A stretch of 64,000 nt of DNA from Elusimicrobiota bacterium (GTDB lineage Bacteria > Elusimicrobiota > Elusimicrobia > Elusimicrobiales > UBA9959), in contig DAIENX010000002.1 of assembly GCA_027340875.1 (NCBI GenBank), positions 1 through 64,000 on the forward strand. The letters are read 5' to 3'. The notes below the pieces were generated by a model. That model worked only from the letters and a program-made list of their open reading frames with translations. It ran no database searches and had not been told where the DNA came from. Shown piece by piece: positions 26,250-34,422 of the stretch (within the stretch, counting starts at the first letter, position 1; each line of letters opens with the position of its first letter). The translations under genes were made by a program, and so were the position numbers.

Positions 26250-26963
26250 TCAGGCCTTGAGCAGCGGGAGCACGGCCTTCTCCAGGTCGCGCGCGAAGGC
26301 GGTGTTCAGCAGGTCGGCCGGCCTGCCGAGGGCCGTTTCCAACCCGTCGTCGAACCGGATGCCCGGGGAGGAGCCGGCGCGGCCGGAGCGGCCGCGCATG
26401 TTCTCCACCACGCCCAGCAGCGGTACCCCCAGCCTGCGGTAGAGCTCCAGCGAGCGCTCCAATACCGACCTGGCCATAACCGACGGGGTCGTCACCGCCA
26501 GCACCTCGGCCTTGGGCAGCAGCCTTATGGCGTCGAGCGCGGTGTCGTTTATGCCGGGGGGCATGTCCACCACCAGGAAATCAAGGTCGCCCCACAGGGT
26601 GACCGCCAGCATCTCCACCACCGCGCCGGAGATATCGGCGCCGCGCAGCGGCACCGCCCTGCCCGAAGAGAAGAAAGAGACCGACATGAACCTTACGCCG
26701 GACACCTCCGGCGGAAGAAGGCCCATCTCCTCCTCCGGGTAGGCGCCGTCGGCGCCCAGGGCCACGTGGGCTGACGCCCCGCAGAAGTCCAGGTCGGCCA
26801 GACCGGTCCTGTAGCCTTTCTTCGCCAGCAGCAGGGCCAGCGTGGAGGCCGTGACGCTCTTGCCTATGCCGCCTTTCCAGCCGGTGACGGCGATGACGCG
26901 CTTCACCCTGGCCAGCCTGTCTCCTATGACCGAGGGCCTCGGGTCTATCCTCGTCGGGGTCAT
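26250..26963 (-). CDS. hypB: Mrp/MinD-family ATPase; probable ATPase-type HypB nickel-insertion protein
   Basis: IDPR N-terminus; deviant Walker A KGGIGKS; DLDFCGAS; PLRG; WGDLDFLVVDMPPG; VVENM; overlaps the hypA stop; start placed at MTPTRIDPR. Confidence 0.75.
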   Translation of the reverse strand: MTPTRIDPRPSVIGDRLARVKRVIAVTGWKGGIGKSVTASTLALLLAKKGYRTGLADLDFCGASAHVALGADGAYPEEEMGLLPPEVSGVRFMSVSFFSSGRAVPLRGADISGAVVEMLAVTLWGDLDFLVVDMPPGINDTALDAIRLLPKAEVLAVTTPSVMARSVLERSLELYRRLGVPLLGVVENMRGRSGRAGSSPGIRFDDGLETALGRPADLLNTAFARDLEKAVLPLLKA

Positions 26964-27361
26964 TTTTCCCCCTTGAGGTATTTGATGTAGACGCCGCGGC
27001 CCGACTTCACCTCGAAGTCGGGGCTCGCGCAGGCGGGGCAGGCCAGGAAGGCGTGAGCGAGCTCCGGTATGAAATGGATGTTCTCGCCTTCCTCGTCGGT
27101 CTTCTTCAGGTGCTCCAGCGTGAAGTCCTTGCCGCAGGCGCGGCACCCGAAGGCGGCGGCTTCCTCTATGAGCTTGAAGCTGCAGGCGGGCGGCGGCGTG
27201 TCCTTGAGCAGCTCGCGCAGCGCCGTGGAGAAGATGTCCCTGTCTATGGCCTGCAGTTCGCCCAGCACCACGCCTATCTCCGAGAGTCTGCGGATCTTCT
27301 CCGAGGCCGCGTGCTTGTTAGCGGATTTTACCACCGATTCGGCTAGAGCCCATTCGTGCAT
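26960..27361 (-). CDS. hypA: Hydrogenase nickel metallochaperone HypA
   Basis: MHE Ni-binding N-terminus; GEL; two CxxC motifs; IHFIPELAHAFLACPAC insert. Confidence 0.92.
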   Translation of the reverse strand: MHEWALAESVVKSANKHAASEKIRRLSEIGVVLGELQAIDRDIFSTALRELLKDTPPPACSFKLIEEAAAFGCRACGKDFTLEHLKKTDEEGENIHFIPELAHAFLACPACASPDFEVKSGRGVYIKYLKGEK

Positions 27362-27362
27362 A

Positions 27363-28541
27363 TCAGCGTCCTATGTCCGTGGGCGCGCGGCCCAGGGAGT
27401 TCAGCAGCTTCACAACGGCCTGGATGCGGGAAGGCACGTCGTCCTCCACGCCGGCCCGGCCGGGGTAGATCTCGTACTGCCTGCGGTACTTCACCGGGGT
27501 CACGTTGATCATCAGGGAGTTCGCGCCGGCCATCAGCCCTTCCCTGGCGCCGTTGTCCTTGTCGAGCGTCTCGAGCGCGGTGGTGACCAGGATGTTGGCC
27601 TCCGGGTTCATCAGCCGGGCTCGTGCTATGGTGTCCAGCATGGAGCCCAGCGGCGGCAACTTCTCCGCGGAAAGCGGCGTCTCGGGGTGCGGGATGAACG
27701 GGCCGAAAGAGAACATCTCCGCGCCCAGCTCGGCGGTGAGCCGGATGTTCCTGAAGGTGTCGCGGTTGGAGCCGCCCGGCAGGCCGGCGAGGAAGCCCGT
27801 GATGATCATGTAGCCGAGTTCCCGGACGCCGCGTATCAGTTCCAGCCGCGCGTCCAGAGAAGCGCCGGGCTTCATGCGGCCGAACAGGTCCGGGTTCGAG
27901 GTCTCGAAGCGCATAAGTACGCCGCGGGCGCCGGCCTTGTAGAGCGCGGCGTAGGTGGAAAGCGGGCGCGGGCCGATGCTGACTATCAGCAGCACCGGGC
28001 AGCGCTTAAGGATGCCCGAGACTATGCGGGCGAGCTTCGCCTCGTCGTACCAGGGGTCCTCGCCGGACTGGAGCACCAGGGCCTTGAACCCCAGCTCCTT
28101 CACGGCGTATTCCACCGCGTCGAGGATCTCGTCCTCGGTCATGCGGTAGCGGCCGACGGCGGAGTTGTCGCGGCGCAGGCCGCAGTAGAGGCAGTTGGCC
28201 GCGCAATGGCTGGAGAACTCGAGGATGCCGTGCACGCAGCAGGAGTTGCCGAGCTTCTTCTGCCGTACGGCGTTGGCGCGCTCGTGGAGCGTGCGCGGCG
28301 CGGCGGCCAGCTTCCTGTCGGTGTCGCGCAGGCGGAAGAAGAGCCGGCGCCACTCGGCCATGATCTCCATGGCCTCGTCCTCCGGCACGGTCTGGATCAC
28401 GAAACCGCCCTGCGCGTAGACGTAGTCGCCTACCGAGACGCTGGCCAGGCCCGTGTGCGCCTTCTTGGTCTCGTCGAAGTACTCTATGGTGGCGGCGAAG
28501 CCTTCTAGCTTTACCACCTTGCCGGGTATGGCGTAGCACAT
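27363..28541 (-). CDS. Fusion: N-terminal HypC/HupF domain + HydE-like radical SAM domain
   Basis: MCYAIPGKVV...VGDYVYAQGGF...EDEA (HypC); GILEFSSHCAANCLYCGLRRDN..RYRM, LQSGED, RFET, GPFIPHPETPL, GANSLM..YEIY (HydE-like). Confidence 0.85.
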   Translation of the reverse strand: MCYAIPGKVVKLEGFAATIEYFDETKKAHTGLASVSVGDYVYAQGGFVIQTVPEDEAMEIMAEWRRLFFRLRDTDRKLAAAPRTLHERANAVRQKKLGNSCCVHGILEFSSHCAANCLYCGLRRDNSAVGRYRMTEDEILDAVEYAVKELGFKALVLQSGEDPWYDEAKLARIVSGILKRCPVLLIVSIGPRPLSTYAALYKAGARGVLMRFETSNPDLFGRMKPGASLDARLELIRGVRELGYMIITGFLAGLPGGSNRDTFRNIRLTAELGAEMFSFGPFIPHPETPLSAEKLPPLGSMLDTIARARLMNPEANILVTTALETLDKDNGAREGLMAGANSLMINVTPVKYRRQYEIYPGRAGVEDDVPSRIQAVVKLLNSLGRAPTDIGR

Positions 28542-28550
28542 GGCGAGCTC

Positions 28551-29927
28551 CTAGAAGTAGAGGTCCCTGCGGCCCCTGGCTATCTGGGCGAGGCGCCTGC
28601 CGGCCTCTTCCCTCAGGGCCAGGTTCTCGATGCCGCCTACGCATCTGCGGATGAGCTCCCTGCCCTTCCGGCGCAGCCCGGCGTCGCCGAAGTCGCTCAG
28701 GTACTCGGCGAAGGTCAGGGCGGCGTTCAGGTCGCAGAACTTGTGGATGTGGCCGGGCTTGGAGAGCTCCATGAATCGCTCTCCGGTGCGGCCGCTGCGG
28801 TAGCAGGCCGTGCAGAAGCTGGGTATCAGGTCGCTCTCGGCCGCGGCGCGCACCACCTCGCGCAGCGGGCGGGCGTCGTGGATGTCGAACTGAGGCTGCC
28901 TGGCGCCGCTGCAGTAGCCGCCGGTCACCGGCACGGAGCCGGCGGAAGCCTGCGAGACGCCGATGTCGAAGGCCCTGCGGCGGATCTCGGGACTTTCCCG
29001 GGTGGACAGGATGATGCCGGCGTAGGGCATGGCCAGCCGGAGTATGGCTATCAGCTTCAGGAAGTCGGCGTCGCTGACGGGATGGGCCGGCTTGTAGCTG
29101 ACCGAGGGGGCCTCGCGCAGCCTTGGCACGGAGATGGTGTGGGGGCCGACGTTGTGCACTGCCTCCAGGTTCCTCGCGTGCGCGGCCAGGCCCAGCAGCT
29201 CGAAGCGCCAGTCGTAGAGCCCGAACAGGACCCCCAGGCCGACGTCGTCTATGCCGCCCTCGAAGGCTCGGCCCGGAGCCCCGAGCTGCCGCTCATAGTC
29301 CGCTTTGGGGCCGGTGTGCAGGCTCTCGTAGGTGGGGCGGTGATAGGTCTCCTGGAAAAGCTGGTAGGTGCCGATGCCGGCCTCCTTGAGCTTTCTGTAG
29401 TTCTCTGGTGTGGTGGCGGCGATGTTGACGTTGACCCTGCGGATGTTGCCCTTCGGGACCTTCACCGAGTAGATCCTCTTTATCACGCTTACGATGTAGT
29501 CTATCGTGTTGCGGGACGGGTCCTCGCCGGCCTCGAGCAGGATGCGTTTGTGGCCCTGGCCTATCAGGAACCTGGTCTCCCTCTCCACCTCGGCCAGCGT
29601 CAGCTTGCGCCTGCTCATGCTCCTATTGGCGGAGCGGAAGTTGCAGTAGCAGCACTCGTTGACGCAGTGGTCGGAGACGTAGAGCGGCGCGAACAGGACC
29701 AGCCTGCGCCCGTATATCTCGCGCTTTACTTCGGAGGCGGCGCGGAACAGCCGCTCGGTCAGCGCGGTATCGGTGACGTGCACCAGCCTGGCGACGTCGG
29801 CCAGGGCGAGGCCTTTCTTCTTCCGCGCCTTCTCTATTATCGCGGCGATCTCGCCGTTCGACGGGTTCTTGGCCCTGTCGAGCATGTCCTGCAGGAAGCC
29901 GGTCCTCAGCGATAGCGGCACGGTCAT
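28551..29927 (-). CDS. hydG: HydG-type tyrosine-lyase radical SAM protein ([FeFe]-hydrogenase maturase family)
   Basis: FAPLYVSDHCVNECCYC; IRRVNVN; YQLFQETYH; GPHTISVPR; C-terminal CX2CX22C (CTAC...KFC). Confidence 0.88.
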   Translation of the reverse strand: MTVPLSLRTGFLQDMLDRAKNPSNGEIAAIIEKARKKKGLALADVARLVHVTDTALTERLFRAASEVKREIYGRRLVLFAPLYVSDHCVNECCYCNFRSANRSMSRRKLTLAEVERETRFLIGQGHKRILLEAGEDPSRNTIDYIVSVIKRIYSVKVPKGNIRRVNVNIAATTPENYRKLKEAGIGTYQLFQETYHRPTYESLHTGPKADYERQLGAPGRAFEGGIDDVGLGVLFGLYDWRFELLGLAAHARNLEAVHNVGPHTISVPRLREAPSVSYKPAHPVSDADFLKLIAILRLAMPYAGIILSTRESPEIRRRAFDIGVSQASAGSVPVTGGYCSGARQPQFDIHDARPLREVVRAAAESDLIPSFCTACYRSGRTGERFMELSKPGHIHKFCDLNAALTFAEYLSDFGDAGLRRKGRELIRRCVGGIENLALREEAGRRLAQIARGRRDLYF

Positions 29928-29984: not shown

Positions 29985-30473
29985 TCAACGGGGCCCGAAT
30001 TCCAGCAGGCAGCCCAGTATCAGCCGCGCGGAGCTCTCTACTTCCCGCGACAGGCCGGCGCCGTAGGCGGTGTTCTTGGGCTGTATGCCCAGAAACACGG
30101 TGCGGGCGCTGGTGTCCTCGCCTATTATCCCGGCGACTACGCTCAGCGGTATGGAATGGGTGGAGAGGGTGCCTTCTCCGATGTGTTCCGGAGCTATGAC
30201 GCGCACCTCGCCCGGGCTGCCGCCGAAATCCGCCGCGTCGATGAATATCACCTTCGCCGGCTTCAGCCCGGCGGCCTTGTCGACCACGCTCTCCGGCCTA
30301 TCGAAGGCGTTGATGAGTCTGAAGCCCAGCTCCCGGCCCAGCAGGCGGCCGCCGATGAACGGCCCCACCCCGTCGTCGCCCCTGAACGGGTTGCCGACCG
30401 TTATCACGAGGGTGTCGCCGCCCTCGCAGGGGGCCAGCGCCTGCCTGGCTTCAGCGGTTAACGTAGGTGACAT
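29985..30473 (-). CDS. Hydrogenase maturation endopeptidase (HycI/HybD family)
   Basis: VGNPFRGDDGVG, FIDAADFG..PG, STH, LGIQP. Confidence 0.9.
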   Translation of the reverse strand: MSPTLTAEARQALAPCEGGDTLVITVGNPFRGDDGVGPFIGGRLLGRELGFRLINAFDRPESVVDKAAGLKPAKVIFIDAADFGGSPGEVRVIAPEHIGEGTLSTHSIPLSVVAGIIGEDTSARTVFLGIQPKNTAYGAGLSREVESSARLILGCLLEFGPR

Positions 30474-31779
30474 TGAGCATATGCGTCGAGCAGGAGATGC
30501 AGGGGTCGTAGGCCCTTACCAGCATCTCGAGCGCGAGCGTTATCTCCTCTTCGGTCTTGTGCAGTATCTCCGGCAGCAGTTTCTTCATGTCGTGCTGGAT
30601 ATTGTTGATGTTCTGGTTCGTCGGGATGATGCAGTTGGCGTTGACTATGGCGCCCTTGGCGTCCGTCTGGTAGTTGTGGAACAGCGTCCCGCGCGGCACC
30701 TCCACGGCGCCCACGCCGTCCCCGGCGCGGAGCGGGACCTTGCCCTGTTCGTTCACCCCGACCAGCACCTGCTCGTCGTAGTTGATCCCGCGCTTGCGCA
30801 GGTCGTTCAGGATGGCGATCGCGTCCTCCAGGCAGTGCACGCACTCCACCAGCTGGGCGGCGGTGTTGAGGTAGGGGTTGCGGCAGACGGGTTTCAGGCC
30901 TATCCGCTCGGCCACGGCCTTGGCGTCCGGGTGCAGCTTGGCGGAGTTGAGATTGAAGCGGGCCAGCGCGCCTACCGCGTAGGACTCGCGGCTGAGCTTC
31001 GTGAACTTGGCGGAGGAGCGCGGGTCCACGAACTCGTTGGTGACCTTCCTGTACTCCTTCTTGCTCATCCGCACGCCGTCCGTGGAGCCGATGTCCCCCT
31101 CCAGGAACGGGTACTCGGGGCCGTCGTTGACCATGGCCACGTACTCGGTGTCGCGCTCGAACTCCGGGAACTTGAAGCCGGCGGCCAGGTCCACGGTCAC
31201 GGCCATGTCCGCGCGCATGCCGCGCAGGATGTTCAGCATGCGGTCTATGTCGTGCTCGGAGGGCAGCTTGGTGAAGCCTCCGGCGACGCAGGAGATCGGG
31301 TGCACATGGCGGCCGACCAGGATCTCGCAGAGGTCGTTGCAGTCCTTCTTCATGCGCAGTGCCCGCCTGACCACCTTGTTGTGCGTGGCCACCAGCGGCA
31401 CGAAGCTCTTGACCCCCAGCATGTCCGGGGCTACCAGCAGGTAGATGTGCAGGATATGGCTGTCCAGCGTCTCGAAGTGCATCAGCAGCTTGCGCAGCTT
31501 CAGGGTCTGGTCGGTGGGGGCTATCCCGAGGGCGTCCTCGGCGGCCTGTATGGAGGCCAGCGAATGGCCGCACGAGCAGATGCCGCAGATGCGGCTGGTG
31601 ATGTGCTGCGCCTCGAACACCGAGCGGCCGCGCAGCATGCCCTCGAAGAAGCGCGGGGCCTCGACGACGTTGAACTCGCATTTCTCTATGCGGCCCTCCC
31701 TGACGTTGACCACGATGTTGCCGTGGCCCTCGACGCGGGTGACGTATTCGCTCTTGATGTCTACGTTCTTGTTAGCCAT
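30451..31779 (-). CDS. Group 3b [NiFe]-hydrogenase large (alpha) subunit
   Basis: TRVEGHG; PRFFEG; L1 SRICGIC; EVPRG; L2 RAYDPCISCSTH plus short cleavable tail; start placed at MANKNV. Confidence 0.93.
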   Translation of the reverse strand: MANKNVDIKSEYVTRVEGHGNIVVNVREGRIEKCEFNVVEAPRFFEGMLRGRSVFEAQHITSRICGICSCGHSLASIQAAEDALGIAPTDQTLKLRKLLMHFETLDSHILHIYLLVAPDMLGVKSFVPLVATHNKVVRRALRMKKDCNDLCEILVGRHVHPISCVAGGFTKLPSEHDIDRMLNILRGMRADMAVTVDLAAGFKFPEFERDTEYVAMVNDGPEYPFLEGDIGSTDGVRMSKKEYRKVTNEFVDPRSSAKFTKLSRESYAVGALARFNLNSAKLHPDAKAVAERIGLKPVCRNPYLNTAAQLVECVHCLEDAIAILNDLRKRGINYDEQVLVGVNEQGKVPLRAGDGVGAVEVPRGTLFHNYQTDAKGAIVNANCIIPTNQNINNIQHDMKKLLPEILHKTEEEITLALEMLVRAYDPCISCSTHMLNVTYVNR

Positions 31780-32522
31780 TATTTCTTTCCTTCCCTGCAC
31801 TTGTTGTACATGTCCATCTTCGCGGCTATCATCGCGGGGGTCACGTTGTACTTGGCCATCACGTCCTTGGCGGCGTTCTCGCGCGGGTTGCTGATCATGC
31901 CGCGGCAGCCGTAGCAGACGTTGTTGTTGTTGACGCACCAGGAATTGCAGCCCGCCCTGGTGACCGGGCCCATGCAGGTCACGCCGCGCTCGTACATGCA
32001 GACGTTCTCGTTGAACTTGCACTCCACGCAGACCGGGTGGTCCGGCACGGTATAGGGCATCCCCTTCAGGATGTGCTTGAGGACCTCCACCAGCTCGGGG
32101 ATGTAGGCCGGGCAGTTGTTGATGGTGTAGTCCACCTTGACCACCTGGTGCAGCGGCCTGGTCTTGGCGGTGGGGAAGCTCTTGTGGTCGGCGCCGTAGA
32201 CGTACTTGCCTATCTCCTCCAGGTCGAACGAGTTCTTCATCCCGTTCACGCCGCCGGTGGCGGCGCAGGCGCCGAAGGCCACCAGGACCTTGGCCCTCTC
32301 CCGGATCTTCTTGAGCCGTTCCGCGGAGTGGTCGTCGGTGACGCTGCCCTCCACGAACGCTACGTCGTACTTCCATTCCCACTTCTCGGACATGACCTCG
32401 CGGAACTCCACTACGTCCACCAGCTCGAGCACGTCGAGCAGGGTCTCGCCCATGTTGGCGAGCTGCAATTGGCAGCCCTCGCAGCAGGACAGATCGAAGA
32501 AAGCGACTTTAGGTTTTGACAT
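31779..32522 (-). CDS. Group 3b [NiFe]-hydrogenase small (delta) subunit
   Basis: SCCEGCQ, VEGSV, GACAATGG, NCP, VCVECK, CMGPVTRAGC, CYGCRG. Confidence 0.92.
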   Translation of the reverse strand: MSKPKVAFFDLSCCEGCQLQLANMGETLLDVLELVDVVEFREVMSEKWEWKYDVAFVEGSVTDDHSAERLKKIRERAKVLVAFGACAATGGVNGMKNSFDLEEIGKYVYGADHKSFPTAKTRPLHQVVKVDYTINNCPAYIPELVEVLKHILKGMPYTVPDHPVCVECKFNENVCMYERGVTCMGPVTRAGCNSWCVNNNNVCYGCRGMISNPRENAAKDVMAKYNVTPAMIAAKMDMYNKCREGKK

Positions 32523-32536
32523 GGCGGTCCTCCGGG

Positions 32537-33379
32537 TCACATCTTGGCTACGTTCTTTATCCTGTCGTAGCTGAACACCGGCCCGTCCTGGCAGCAGTAG
32601 TAGTTGTCGATGCTGTCGATCTGGCAGTGCCCGCACTTCCCCATGCCGCATTTCATGTGCCGCTCCAGGGAGAGGATGATGTTGCGCTCGGCTATCTTCT
32701 TCTTCAGCAGCTCGGAGATCACGAACTTGTACATGACAGGGGGGCCTACCACCACGGCGAAGGTCCTCTCCGGGTTGATCGTGACGCCCGGGATGATGGA
32801 GGTTATCAGGCCGATGTTGCCGGCCCAGTCCGGGCTGCCCTTGTCCACGGTCACGTTGAAGTTGACGTCCACCCGCTTCTGCCAGAACTCCAGGTCGTCG
32901 GCGAAGAGCATCTCGCTGGGGTTGCGGCAGCCCAGCAGGATGTCCACCTTGCCGAACTCGCGCCGGTTGTCGATCACGTAGTTTATCAGCGAGCGCAGCG
33001 GCGCTATGCCGAGGCCGCCCGCCACGAAGATCAGGTCGTTGCCGGCCAGCACCTTGACCGGGAAGCCCTTGCCGAACGGGCCGCGGATGCCGATCTCGTC
33101 GCCGGCCTCGAGGGCGTGCATAGCGTTGGTGACCCGGCCGGCCGCGCGCACGCAGAGCTCGAAGGAGCCGCGCTTGGTGGGGGAGGAGCAGAGCGAGATA
33201 GGGGCCTCGCCCACGCCGAAGACCGAGACCTGGACGAACTGGCCTGGCTCGTAGTCCATCGCGCGGCCGTTGTCCAGCTCTATCTCGAAGAGCTTCTCCG
33301 AGGGGGTCATCCGCTTGACGCGGATGATGCGGCCTTTCCTGACGCGCCAGTTAGAGTTGACGAGCTCTTCCTTTATCAT
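32537..33379 (-). CDS. Sulfhydrogenase gamma subunit (FAD/NAD(P)-binding, [2Fe-2S])
   Basis: PGQFVQV..GVGEAPIS, RGPFGKGF, AGGLGIAPLRS, GPPVM, ERHMKCGMGKCGHC, CQDGPVF. Confidence 0.92.
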   Translation of the reverse strand: MIKEELVNSNWRVRKGRIIRVKRMTPSEKLFEIELDNGRAMDYEPGQFVQVSVFGVGEAPISLCSSPTKRGSFELCVRAAGRVTNAMHALEAGDEIGIRGPFGKGFPVKVLAGNDLIFVAGGLGIAPLRSLINYVIDNRREFGKVDILLGCRNPSEMLFADDLEFWQKRVDVNFNVTVDKGSPDWAGNIGLITSIIPGVTINPERTFAVVVGPPVMYKFVISELLKKKIAERNIILSLERHMKCGMGKCGHCQIDSIDNYYCCQDGPVFSYDRIKNVAKM

Positions 33380-34422
33380 GCGGCCTCCTTTACCAGTGCT
33401 GTAAGCGTTTCCTTGAGCCGGATGCCCGCCATGCAGGTCCGGGTGCACCTGCCGCAGCCGGTGCAGAAGAAGCGGTAGTACTTGCCGAGCGAGAAGCGGA
33501 ACTTGCGGTAATGGCGGTGCCGCAGGCGCTCGGCCTGGCCGCTGCGGAAATTCTCGCCGCCGGCCACCTTGGCGAAGGTCTCGACCTCGCAGGAATCCCA
33601 GGTCCGGACGCGCTTGCCGCTCTTCAGGTCCAGGTTCAGCGTGTCGGCTATGTCGAAGCAGTAGCAGGTGGGGCAGACGTTGGTGCAGTTGCCGCAGCCC
33701 AGGCATTTGTCCCCGATGGCCTTCCAGACCGGGCTGTTCTCGCTCTTGTCGAAGATGGCCGGGAGCTTCTTGCGGTCGACGTTCACCTCGTCCTTGAAGC
33801 GGGAGCGCTTGGCGTCCCTGATGGCGTAGAGCGCCTCCATCTGGGCCTGCGTGGCGGGCTTGAACAGGTTGCTGCTGTCCACCAGGTCGTCGCCGGCCTG
33901 GGTGTTCACGTGCGCCATGAAGACCTCTCCCATGTCGGTGAAGAACAGGTCGTAGCCGCCGTTGGGGAAGTTCGAGTTCATCAGGTTGCAGCTGGCGTGC
34001 TCGTCGCAGTACTCGGTGCACTCCAGGCCGATGACGGTTATGTTGTCCTTGCGGCGCAGGTAGTTGTAGTCGCGCGGTCTTTCGGAGAAGACGATGTTCA
34101 GGCACTGGATGCCGTTCAGGTCGCAGGTGTGGACTCCGAAGATGACGGTGTTCTCGTGCTCGAGCAGGGCCTCGGCGTTCTCCACGTGGCCGGTGCTGAA
34201 GCTCAGCATCGTCTCCTTCTGCGGCAGGAAGTACTTCTTGGGGGGCAGTATCGTGGGTATGTGCTTGAGGGCTATGTCGTTAGCGGAGGTGACCTCCGTG
34301 AAGGCGTAGTTGCCGTAGCCCTTGCTGACCGGCGCCACCACCTTGTGATTGCGCGAGAGCTTCACGATGAAGCTGTTAAGGTCGTCTTTTCTGAGGATGA
34401 AGTACCGCGTGTGCGTTCCCAT
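33376..34422 (-). CDS. Sulfhydrogenase beta subunit (4Fe-4S dicluster, AsrA-like)
   Basis: PPKKYFLP, FGVHTCD, CLGCGNCTNVCPTCYC, WDSC, CTGCGRCTRTC; GGAGG RBS before MGTHT. Confidence 0.9.
   Translation of the reverse strand: MGTHTRYFILRKDDLNSFIVKLSRNHKVVAPVSKGYGNYAFTEVTSANDIALKHIPTILPPKKYFLPQKETMLSFSTGHVENAEALLEHENTVIFGVHTCDLNGIQCLNIVFSERPRDYNYLRRKDNITVIGLECTEYCDEHASCNLMNSNFPNGGYDLFFTDMGEVFMAHVNTQAGDDLVDSSNLFKPATQAQMEALYAIRDAKRSRFKDEVNVDRKKLPAIFDKSENSPVWKAIGDKCLGCGNCTNVCPTCYCFDIADTLNLDLKSGKRVRTWDSCEVETFAKVAGGENFRSGQAERLRHRHYRKFRFSLGKYYRFFCTGCGRCTRTCMAGIRLKETLTALVKEAA

Follow-up and report, generated by a model that had tools for sequence, protein, structure and literature searches.

A HypC–HydE-like fusion protein encoded beside HydG in an Elusimicrobiota hydrogenase operon: a probable replacement for HypCDEF in [NiFe] cofactor assembly

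The gene at positions 27363..28541 (minus strand) of a 64,000-nucleotide stretch of contig DAIENX010000002.1 from an Elusimicrobiota bacterium (GCA_027340875.1) encodes a HypC-type domain fused to a HydE-like radical S-adenosylmethionine (SAM) domain, and it lies next to hydG in a [NiFe] hydrogenase operon. The whole stretch is called the window here, the assembly that holds it is G000, and other genomes and fetched loci carry G- and L-numbers. We consider it probable that HydG and this fusion together make and deliver the Fe-CO-CN unit of the [NiFe] large subunit, replacing HypC, HypD, HypE and HypF in this organism. We hold this view because the two genes are co-located with the hydrogenase genes, co-occur with [NiFe] hydrogenases elsewhere and are close to mutually exclusive with HypD and HypE; because the hyp genes are cleanly deleted from this genome; and because natural triple fusions, conserved catalytic residues, a rebuilt product pocket and purifying selection all point the same way. 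A wider proposal, to which we give a little better than an even chance, is that many strict anaerobes (DPANN archaea, Omnitrophota, Planctomycetota, Elusimicrobiota and this lineage) build Fe(CN)2CO wholly from tyrosine through HydG and a HypC-tethered HydE scaffold, without HypD, HypE, HypF or carbamoyl phosphate. This would constitute a second, independent route to the [NiFe] cofactor and an evolutionary bridge between the [FeFe] and [NiFe] systems, with HypCDEF recently displaced in this genus by horizontal transfer.

The fusion is read from an ATG start as a single open reading frame of 392 amino acids without an internal stop, and its translation begins MCYAIPG. Pfam assigned HupF_HypC (PF01455) to residues 1-63 (50.8 bits, cut-off 28.5, E = 1.8e-13), Radical_SAM (PF04055) to residues 108-260 (51.4 bits, cut-off 29.5) and BATS to residues 282-364 (29.8 bits, cut-off 22.2). 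Although the HypC part passed the PF01455 cut-off, it fell under that of NCBIfam TIGR00074 (42.5 bits, cut-off 48); the top NCBIfam score for the protein was that of HydE, TIGR03956 (224.7 bits), under the curated cut-off of 254.6. Identity as PylB, BioB or HmdB was rejected, with scores of 110.1 (cut-off 348.2), 72.1 (225) and 58.6 (320.9), respectively, and was also excluded by the fold ranking and the tree described below. Among solved structures, Thermotoga maritima HydE (TmHydE) aligned to residues 84-387 (220 bits, E = 3e-64), PylB (79.7 bits) and BioB (46.7 bits) were weaker matches, and Thermococcus kodakarensis HypC (2z1c) aligned to residues 1-66 (E = 3.4e-8).

Within the radical SAM part, of about 310 residues, C113-AAN-C117-LY-C120 aligns with C63/C67/C70 of TmHydE, the CX3CX2C radical SAM triad; LQSGED (157-162) is identical to LQSGED of TmHydE, GPFIPHPETPL (280-290) corresponds to GPFIPHPDTPL, and Y356-EI-Y359 aligns with Y303-QL-Y306. 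In the HypC part, alignment to the solved HypC structures 2z1c and 3d3r places Gln44, in the stretch YAQGGF, at the position of the canonical HypC His. Cys2, Pro6, Gly7 and Gln44 are invariant in the fusion family (71/71 for Cys2 and Gln44). An AlphaFold2 model based on a 71-sequence alignment has a compact two-domain fold (mean predicted local distance difference test score 94.0; predicted template modelling score, pTM, 0.91), with the HypC beta-barrel at residues 7-52, two linker helices (54-78 and 85-97) and the radical SAM barrel after them. Because the pTM is so high for a two-domain protein, the model suggests that the HypC and radical SAM domains are held in a fixed mutual arrangement. 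Foldseek ranked TmHydE first for this model (E = 7e-33, TM-score 0.85 on the target), then PylB (3e-22), and then HydG, BioB and ThiH (about 1e-17).

These results bear out the architecture that an earlier note had read from the letters of the window: a HypC-type N-terminus with Cys2, the replacement of the conserved HypC His, an in-frame run from HypC into a radical SAM domain without a stop (one frame carrying both Pfam domains), and a set of HydE motifs, every one of which is present and aligned with its TmHydE counterpart. That note had also named an assembly artefact as a possible undoing of the fusion, which its recurrence removes: all of the best 120 of 6112 homologues (56-99% identity, 387-435 aa) carry both PF01455 and PF04055, relatives were located in 380 loci across species, and the gene is also present in G031, another species of this genus. 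Many of these homologues are labelled HydE or [FeFe] maturase by NCBI.

The gene order of the operon, all on the minus strand, is beta–gamma–small–large–protease–hydG–fusion–hypA–ATPase (probable hypB), running from 34422 to 26250 with gaps of -23 to +57 nt; 9 nt separate the hydG stop from the fusion start, and a single nucleotide lies between the fusion TGA and the hypA ATG. HydG, the radical SAM tyrosine lyase (28551..29927, 458 aa), scored 513.5 bits against TIGR03955 (cut-off 312.15) and matched T. italicus HydG (4wcx) over its full length at 503 bits, with the C-terminal CX2CX22C motif and the end of the protein aligned; judged by these matches, it is a bona fide HydG. The hydrogenase itself comprises a beta subunit with a 4Fe-4S dicluster domain (33376..34422, 348 aa; PF17179, Fer4_22, 103.9 bits), at whose gene a promoter-like site was noted (34512-34484, minus strand), a gamma subunit with FAD/NAD-binding and [2Fe-2S] domains (32537..33379, 280 aa; PF00175, PF10418 and PF00970), a small subunit (31779..32522, 247 aa; PF01058, 91.3 bits) and a large subunit (30451..31779, 442 aa; PF00374), a four-subunit layout that we take to be that of group 3b. 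The large subunit keeps RICGIC intact and ends in DPCISCSTH plus a C-terminal extension of 9 residues, and its homologues carry the source names sulfhydrogenase alpha or Ni/Fe hydrogenase alpha. Between the large subunit and hydG lies a hydrogenase maturation endopeptidase (29985..30473, 162 aa; PF01750, 40.6 bits; TIGR00072, 97.4 bits, cut-off 47.45). The fusion is followed by the nickel metallochaperone HypA (26960..27361, 133 aa; PF01155, 76.2 bits; NF003008, 145.8 bits, cut-off 125) and by a Mrp/NUBPL-type P-loop ATPase (26250..26963, 237 aa; PF10609, 160.9 bits). The closest solved relative of the latter is 3vx3, the T. kodakarensis Mrp homologue (204.7 bits; runner-up 109 bits), which we take to be the ATPase-type HypB; the window protein is probably of the same type.

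Searches of the G000 assembly (2.8 Mb, 112 contigs, completeness 92.45%, estimated contamination 5.49%) returned no match to HypD, no HypE over the cut-off (best 22.9 bits), only an acylphosphatase-like stretch for HypF (38 bits), no HydF over the cut-off and no [FeFe] hydrogenase HydA; the sole HypC match was the fusion. Of HypABCDEF and the protease, then, the genome keeps HypA, the ATPase-type HypB and the protease, with HypC solely as part of the fusion. It nonetheless holds two intact [NiFe] hydrogenases, the group 3b enzyme of the window and a Mvh-type enzyme on contig C101, and since it has a single HypC-type domain both would depend on the fusion. The C101 region (C101:4473-10183) encodes HdrA-like and MvhD-like proteins, a small subunit, a large subunit (RICGVC ... 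DPCFGCATH and a tail) and its own protease. No BioB match at E <= 1e-20 was obtained in G000, so biotin synthase is possibly lacking or encoded in the missing 7.5% of the genome.

Comparison with relatives locates the missing hyp genes. In the relative G028 the order is nikR, C11 peptidase, hypF, a 271-aa gene, hypE, a lysR-type gene, hypD, hypC and prepilin peptidase. On contig C72 of G000, the C11 peptidase, the 271-aa gene and the prepilin peptidase are colinear with this arrangement at 73-77% nucleotide identity, and about 27 bp stand in place of hypF and about 50 bp in place of hypE-lysR-hypD-hypC. Against G005 the hypC-to-hypE block is likewise missing from C72 (71-78% identity, about 75 bp remaining), and the G005 contig ends before hypF. 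On these alignments, hypF and hypC-hypD-lysR-hypE are cleanly deleted in G000 and not lost in an assembly gap. No direct repeats bracketing the deleted blocks were found, hence we propose no deletion mechanism. The LysR-type gene between hypD and hypE (L026:8325-9230 in G028, with similar spacing in G005) was deleted together with them. Two stretches of about 100-190 nt flank the hypE-to-hypC block in G028 (L026:7185-7319 and L026:10715-10905); because each matches 6-8 different G000 contigs at 79-88%, both are, as read from these matches, multi-copy elements, and they are unlike each other. The housekeeping flanks of the fusion operon match 40/40 sampled relatives of the genus at 76-83% nucleotide identity, so that contig C14, on which the window lies, is considered native.

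Among these 40 relatives, 23 of which are of high quality, HypD was found in 34 (including 23/23 of high quality), HypE over the cut-off in 33 and HydA in 22, while 20 have a canonical stand-alone HydE (335-358 bits) beside a HydG of 374-440 bits. The pair of hydG and fusion (hereafter the module) occupies the interval between protease and hypA only in G000 and G031 in the genus sample. Over 12.4 kb the G031 locus shares 91% identity with the window, its fusion is 95% identical at the amino-acid level, and neither G000 nor G031 has HypD, HypE, HydA or a canonical HydE; being kin, the two are counted as one event. In four other relatives examined, the protease-hypA interval holds permease, YbaB, sigma factor and RcpC-like genes. 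Five more relatives, 63-89% complete, have neither HypD nor the fusion, and since no HypC of any type was matched in the three examined (G006, G007 and G008), these HypD-less cases look like incompleteness. Purifying selection on the module follows from the ratios of nonsynonymous to synonymous substitution rates (dN/dS) between G000 and G031, which are 0.098 (fusion) and 0.131 (HydG); the protease has 0.069. Horizontal acquisition of the fusion is what the similarities point to, because the nearest neighbours of the window protein are fusions from metagenome-assembled genomes labelled Elusimicrobiaceae, Lentisphaerae and Planctomycetota and the canonical HydE proteins of its own genus are only 35-37% identical to it.

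A scan of 185,579 species, one genome each, gave 417 pattern matches, of which 380 encode a relative of the fusion. Eighty of the 380 loci were fetched and, by record titles, belong to Planctomycetota, Omnitrophota, Lentisphaerae, Elusimicrobiota, Firestonebacteria, WOR-3, Zixibacteria, Brevinematales/Spirochaetes, Saganbacteria, Margulisbacteria, Patescibacteria and DPANN archaea. Using tblastn, HydG was detected in 52 of the 80 loci, mostly less than 600 bp away and on the same strand, the large subunit in 21 and the protease in 19; HypD, HypE or HypF was detected in 0/80, by a single-query search that is insensitive to short or divergent proteins and in loci many of which are short contigs. 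At the genome level, 50 of the 79 non-self loci had been picked for taxon spread before any genome-level result was seen, and the completeness of their genomes is unreported. HydG was over its cut-off in 48/50 of these genomes, as was the [NiFe] large subunit (49/50 at E <= 0.001), and HypD and HypE over the cut-off were each found in one, the same genome (G073). HydA was present in 11/50 and absent from 39/50. In all five HydA-bearing fusion genomes that were tested, a separate canonical HydE of 308-386 bits is encoded in addition to the fusion, which scores 252-265 bits, and HydF is present in four; given that separate HydE, the fusion is unlikely to be the [FeFe] HydE in those five genomes. 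We also identified 15 natural HypC-HydE-HydG triple fusions of 727-946 aa, with a HydG part of 489-607 bits in the three that were scanned.

Some loci differ in arrangement. In the Omnitrophota genome G068 (C2:403148-418595, locus L060; likewise on C1 of G073), a stretch of about 15 kb holds the genes for HydG, the fusion, a radical SAM protein of 730 aa, a Rex-like protein, HydF, HydA and a canonical HydE, and a single HydG may serve both the [FeFe] and the [NiFe] pathways in these two genomes. In three Brevinematales/Spirochaetes loci (L091, L103 and L108) the fusion comes straight after a group-3b hydrogenase and its protease with no adjoining HydG; in G084 and G093, those checked, the sole HydG over the cut-off is on another contig and, at 439-450 bits, resembles the canonical type.

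The phylogenetic position of the radical SAM domain was assessed in a quick IQ-TREE analysis of 78 rows, with Shimodaira–Hasegawa-like approximate likelihood-ratio test (SH-aLRT) support only and rooted with HydG and ThiH-like proteins; part of the fusion rows were thinned to one in three and all locus-derived rows were kept. The 58 HypC-fused domains (50 two-domain fusions, 7 triple fusions and the window protein) formed one clade (SH-aLRT 99, stem 0.93), apart from 16 canonical HydE sequences, 6 of them from the window's genus. The phylogeny, of a kind that the earlier note had suggested as a check, places the fused domains in a HydE-related clade. Its reading of the domain as HydE-like stands on score, fold and clade, but a canonical HydE it is not, being under the family cut-off and having a remodelled product pocket. 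In a corresponding quick tree of HydG (LG+G4, with 5 canonical rows), canonical HydG nested among module HydG, and there was no clear sign of a distinct type.

Residues were mapped to TmHydE through a HMMER alignment and tabulated over the same 58 fused and 16 canonical sequences. Both sets retain C63/C67/C70, E58, V105, S136, L157, R159, E161, M224, T268/T269, M291, Y303 and Y306, with E58, R159, M224, M291 and T268/T269 conserved in 53-58 of the 58 fused domains. According to the part of PMC11826987 available to us, M224 and M291 hold the Fe(I) intermediates of HydE, K309 forms a salt bridge with E58 and takes part in a radical relay, and R54, T134, R155 and T269 touch the cyanides of the Fe2 dimer product. 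Several of the product-side positions are changed in the fused clade: R54 (canonical Arg 16/16) is His in 58/58 (His104 in the window), T134 (canonical Thr 16/16) is Phe, Ile or Val in 54/58 (window Ile186), and R155 (canonical Arg 16/16) is Gly, Ala or Ser in 58/58 (window Gly207). H52 (canonical His 11/16) is replaced by Cys in 58/58, V51 (canonical Val 14/16) by Cys in 51 and Ser in 7, and D154 (canonical Asp 13/16) by Arg in 53/58; K309 (canonical Lys 16/16) is Arg in 42 and Lys in 15 of the 58 (window Arg362). The three auxiliary-cluster Cys, present in 14/16 canonical sequences, occur in 0/58 fused ones. As judged from this alignment, the substrate and radical half of the HydE active site is kept in the fused clade and the product pocket is rebuilt. 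The window protein carries C101-C102-x-H104 on strand beta-1, with the Cys102/His104 pair invariant; because these two residues are two apart on that strand of the model, we infer that their side chains face the same side.

A mechanism can be proposed on this basis. As is established for [FeFe] maturation, HydG would split tyrosine and, at its C-terminal cluster, assemble a Fe(CO)x(CN)y-cysteine synthon. The HydE-like barrel would accept the synthon and carry out HydE radical chemistry on the cysteine ligand, stripping the cysteine, a step we propose because the SAM cluster and the substrate- and Fe(I)-holding residues are kept. The resulting mononuclear iron unit would be held at Cys102/His104, with Cys101 alongside, in the scaffold role otherwise played by Cys41 of HypD, and would then move to Cys2 of the tethered HypC, which would load it into the apo-large subunit. 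Finally, HypA and the ATPase-type HypB would add nickel and the protease would trim the C-terminal tail, as in the canonical pathway. The available part of a 2025 review states that H51 of HypC possibly helps to coordinate iron on the HypC-HypD complex (PMC12134894); the invariant His-to-Gln change in the HypC part of the fusion fits the loss of HypD, and the suggestion of the earlier note that the missing His reflects a changed partner is consistent with both. The earlier note had also proposed that the radical SAM domain takes over the role of HypD, which agrees with the deletion of hypD, hypE and hypF and with the finding of HypD in 1/50 fusion genomes; the scaffold function and the hand-off to Cys2 that it added go beyond these observations and are put forward here as conjecture.

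Several observations weigh against the replacement of HypCDEF by HydG and the fusion. The known synthon of HydG carries two CO with one CN, where the [NiFe] site calls for one CO with two CN; the ligand stoichiometry of the HydG product is therefore mismatched with the Fe(CN)2CO unit, and ligand exchange or a second HydG turnover would be required. HydA is present in 11 of the 50 fusion genomes, and in G068 and G073 hydF, hydA and a canonical hydE are found in the same region as the module, making an [FeFe] link possible there; G073 moreover has the module in addition to HypD and HypE. In three Planctomycetota loci (L034, L040 and L043) the fusion stands amid unrelated genes with no HydG within 10 kb, HydG being encoded elsewhere in the genome. 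Residue 191 (window 27969-27971) is Pro in the window protein and Ala in G031, where 48/58 fused domains and 16/16 canonical HydE have Glu (TmHydE E139). The contamination estimate for G000, 5.49%, also counts here, though the flanks in the window match all 40 relatives. An alternative is a more limited role, in which the module provides the CO ligand only, as an anaerobic CO source, and cyanide and scaffold come from other, unrecognised proteins. HydG does make CO, the available part of PMC12134894 ranks the source of CO in anaerobes as the most pressing of the open questions, and G073 combines the module with HypD/HypE; yet HydG produces cyanide too, HypD and HypE over the cut-off are each limited to 1/50 fusion genomes, and the deletion of hypF and hypE from G000 took away the only known cyanide route, leaving this explanation unlikely.

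We regard as more doubtful still the idea that the fusion is a HydE variant serving [FeFe] hydrogenase, or another iron-carbonyl cofactor, in an incidentally [NiFe] neighbourhood. The HydE names given by NCBI to many members, the HydA-bearing minority and the L060 locus of G068, where the module is 4 kb from hydF, would suit it, but 39/50 fusion genomes are without HydA when 48/50 have a [NiFe] large subunit, G000 has neither HydA nor HydF, a separate canonical HydE accompanied the fusion in each of the five HydA-bearing genomes tested, the N-terminal domain is a [NiFe]-specific chaperone, and the [NiFe] large subunit lies inside 21 of the 80 fetched loci. There is only a very slim chance that the absence of HypCDEF is merely apparent, through incomplete bins or a contaminant contig C14, and that the fusion is an accessory to a normal pathway: the completeness and contamination values of G000 and the five HypD-less, fusion-less relatives (63-89% complete) leave some room for it, whereas the hyp locus is colinear on one G000 contig with precisely both hyp blocks missing, the flanks in the window match 40/40 relatives at 76-83%, and HypD is missing from 49/50 independent genomes, nearly all with the large subunit and HydG. 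An equally slight prospect is that, with HypCDEF gone, the hydrogenases and the module persist as decaying relics, as residue 191 (Pro in G000, Ala in G031, mostly Glu in the family) might be taken to indicate; the dN/dS values of fusion, HydG and protease speak against decay, as do both G000 large subunits, which keep their metal-binding motifs and open frames. Replacement of HypCDEF by HydG and the fusion is accordingly the reading we prefer.

In the literature, the available part of the 2025 review describes six Hyp proteins as necessary if the [NiFe] cofactor is to be made anaerobically (PMC12134894), and the review contains neither of the terms 'HydG' and 'radical SAM'; a 2024 survey in Cell, in the part available, treats archaeal HydE and HydG as [FeFe] maturases (PMC11216029), and the term 'HypC' occurs 0 times there. 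Our literature searches, which excluded supplements, returned no paper giving the fusion a function or describing a HydG route to [NiFe], and one preprint that mentions the fusion in passing. If the proposed route is real, a large group of uncultured anaerobes would have in tyrosine a defined source for CO as well as CN, and the two hydrogenase maturation systems would be linked in evolution. Such a route could further be turned into a compact cassette of two genes for producing [NiFe] hydrogenases in heterologous hosts, and the genus would offer a natural before-and-after comparison, with orthologous hydrogenases served either by HypCDEF or by the module. For annotation, [FeFe] maturase names on module genes can falsely imply [FeFe] hydrogenase metabolism, and module-bearing genomes may be scored as being without [NiFe] maturation.

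Comparison with the known systems places the fusion between established families. HydE (T. maritima; PDB 3iiz, 3cix and 7o1o; TIGR03956) is its best match in sequence and fold, shares the cluster triad and the substrate residues, and is likewise partnered with HydG; the fusion differs in falling under the TIGR03956 cut-off (224.7 against 254.6 bits, when canonical HydE of the genus scores 335-358 bits), in forming a separate clade on a long stem, in its changed product pocket, in the absence of auxiliary-cluster Cys, in its N-terminal HypC domain, and in occurring without HydF or HydA in G000 and without HydA in 39 of the 50 genomes. With HypC, HybG and HupF (E. coli; T. kodakarensis 2z1c and 3vyr) it has in common the PF01455 domain, the Met-Cys start, Pro6 and Gly7, a modelled beta-barrel with helix, and a place in a [NiFe] operon with HypA, HypB and protease. 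Unlike them, it has Gln for H51 of the E. coli protein, scores under the TIGR00074 cut-off and is fused to a radical SAM enzyme instead of standing alone, and in contrast to the HypC-HypD scaffold it has no HypD partner in its genome. The HydG-HydE-HydF pathway resembles the module in coupling a bona fide HydG to a HydE-type enzyme, and natural HydE-HydG fusions exist in both systems, but G000 has neither the HydF scaffold nor the HydA target, and the presumed product is a mononuclear iron unit for [NiFe] hydrogenase and not a Fe2 dimer. HypX, the CO-forming add-on of aerobic [NiFe] maturation, supplements HypABCDEF and is unrelated in fold and chemistry, whereas the module goes with HypCDEF loss. 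Because the window protein lacks some of the defining features of HydE and some of those of HypC, the fusion is, on these family comparisons, built from two known kinds and a member of neither.

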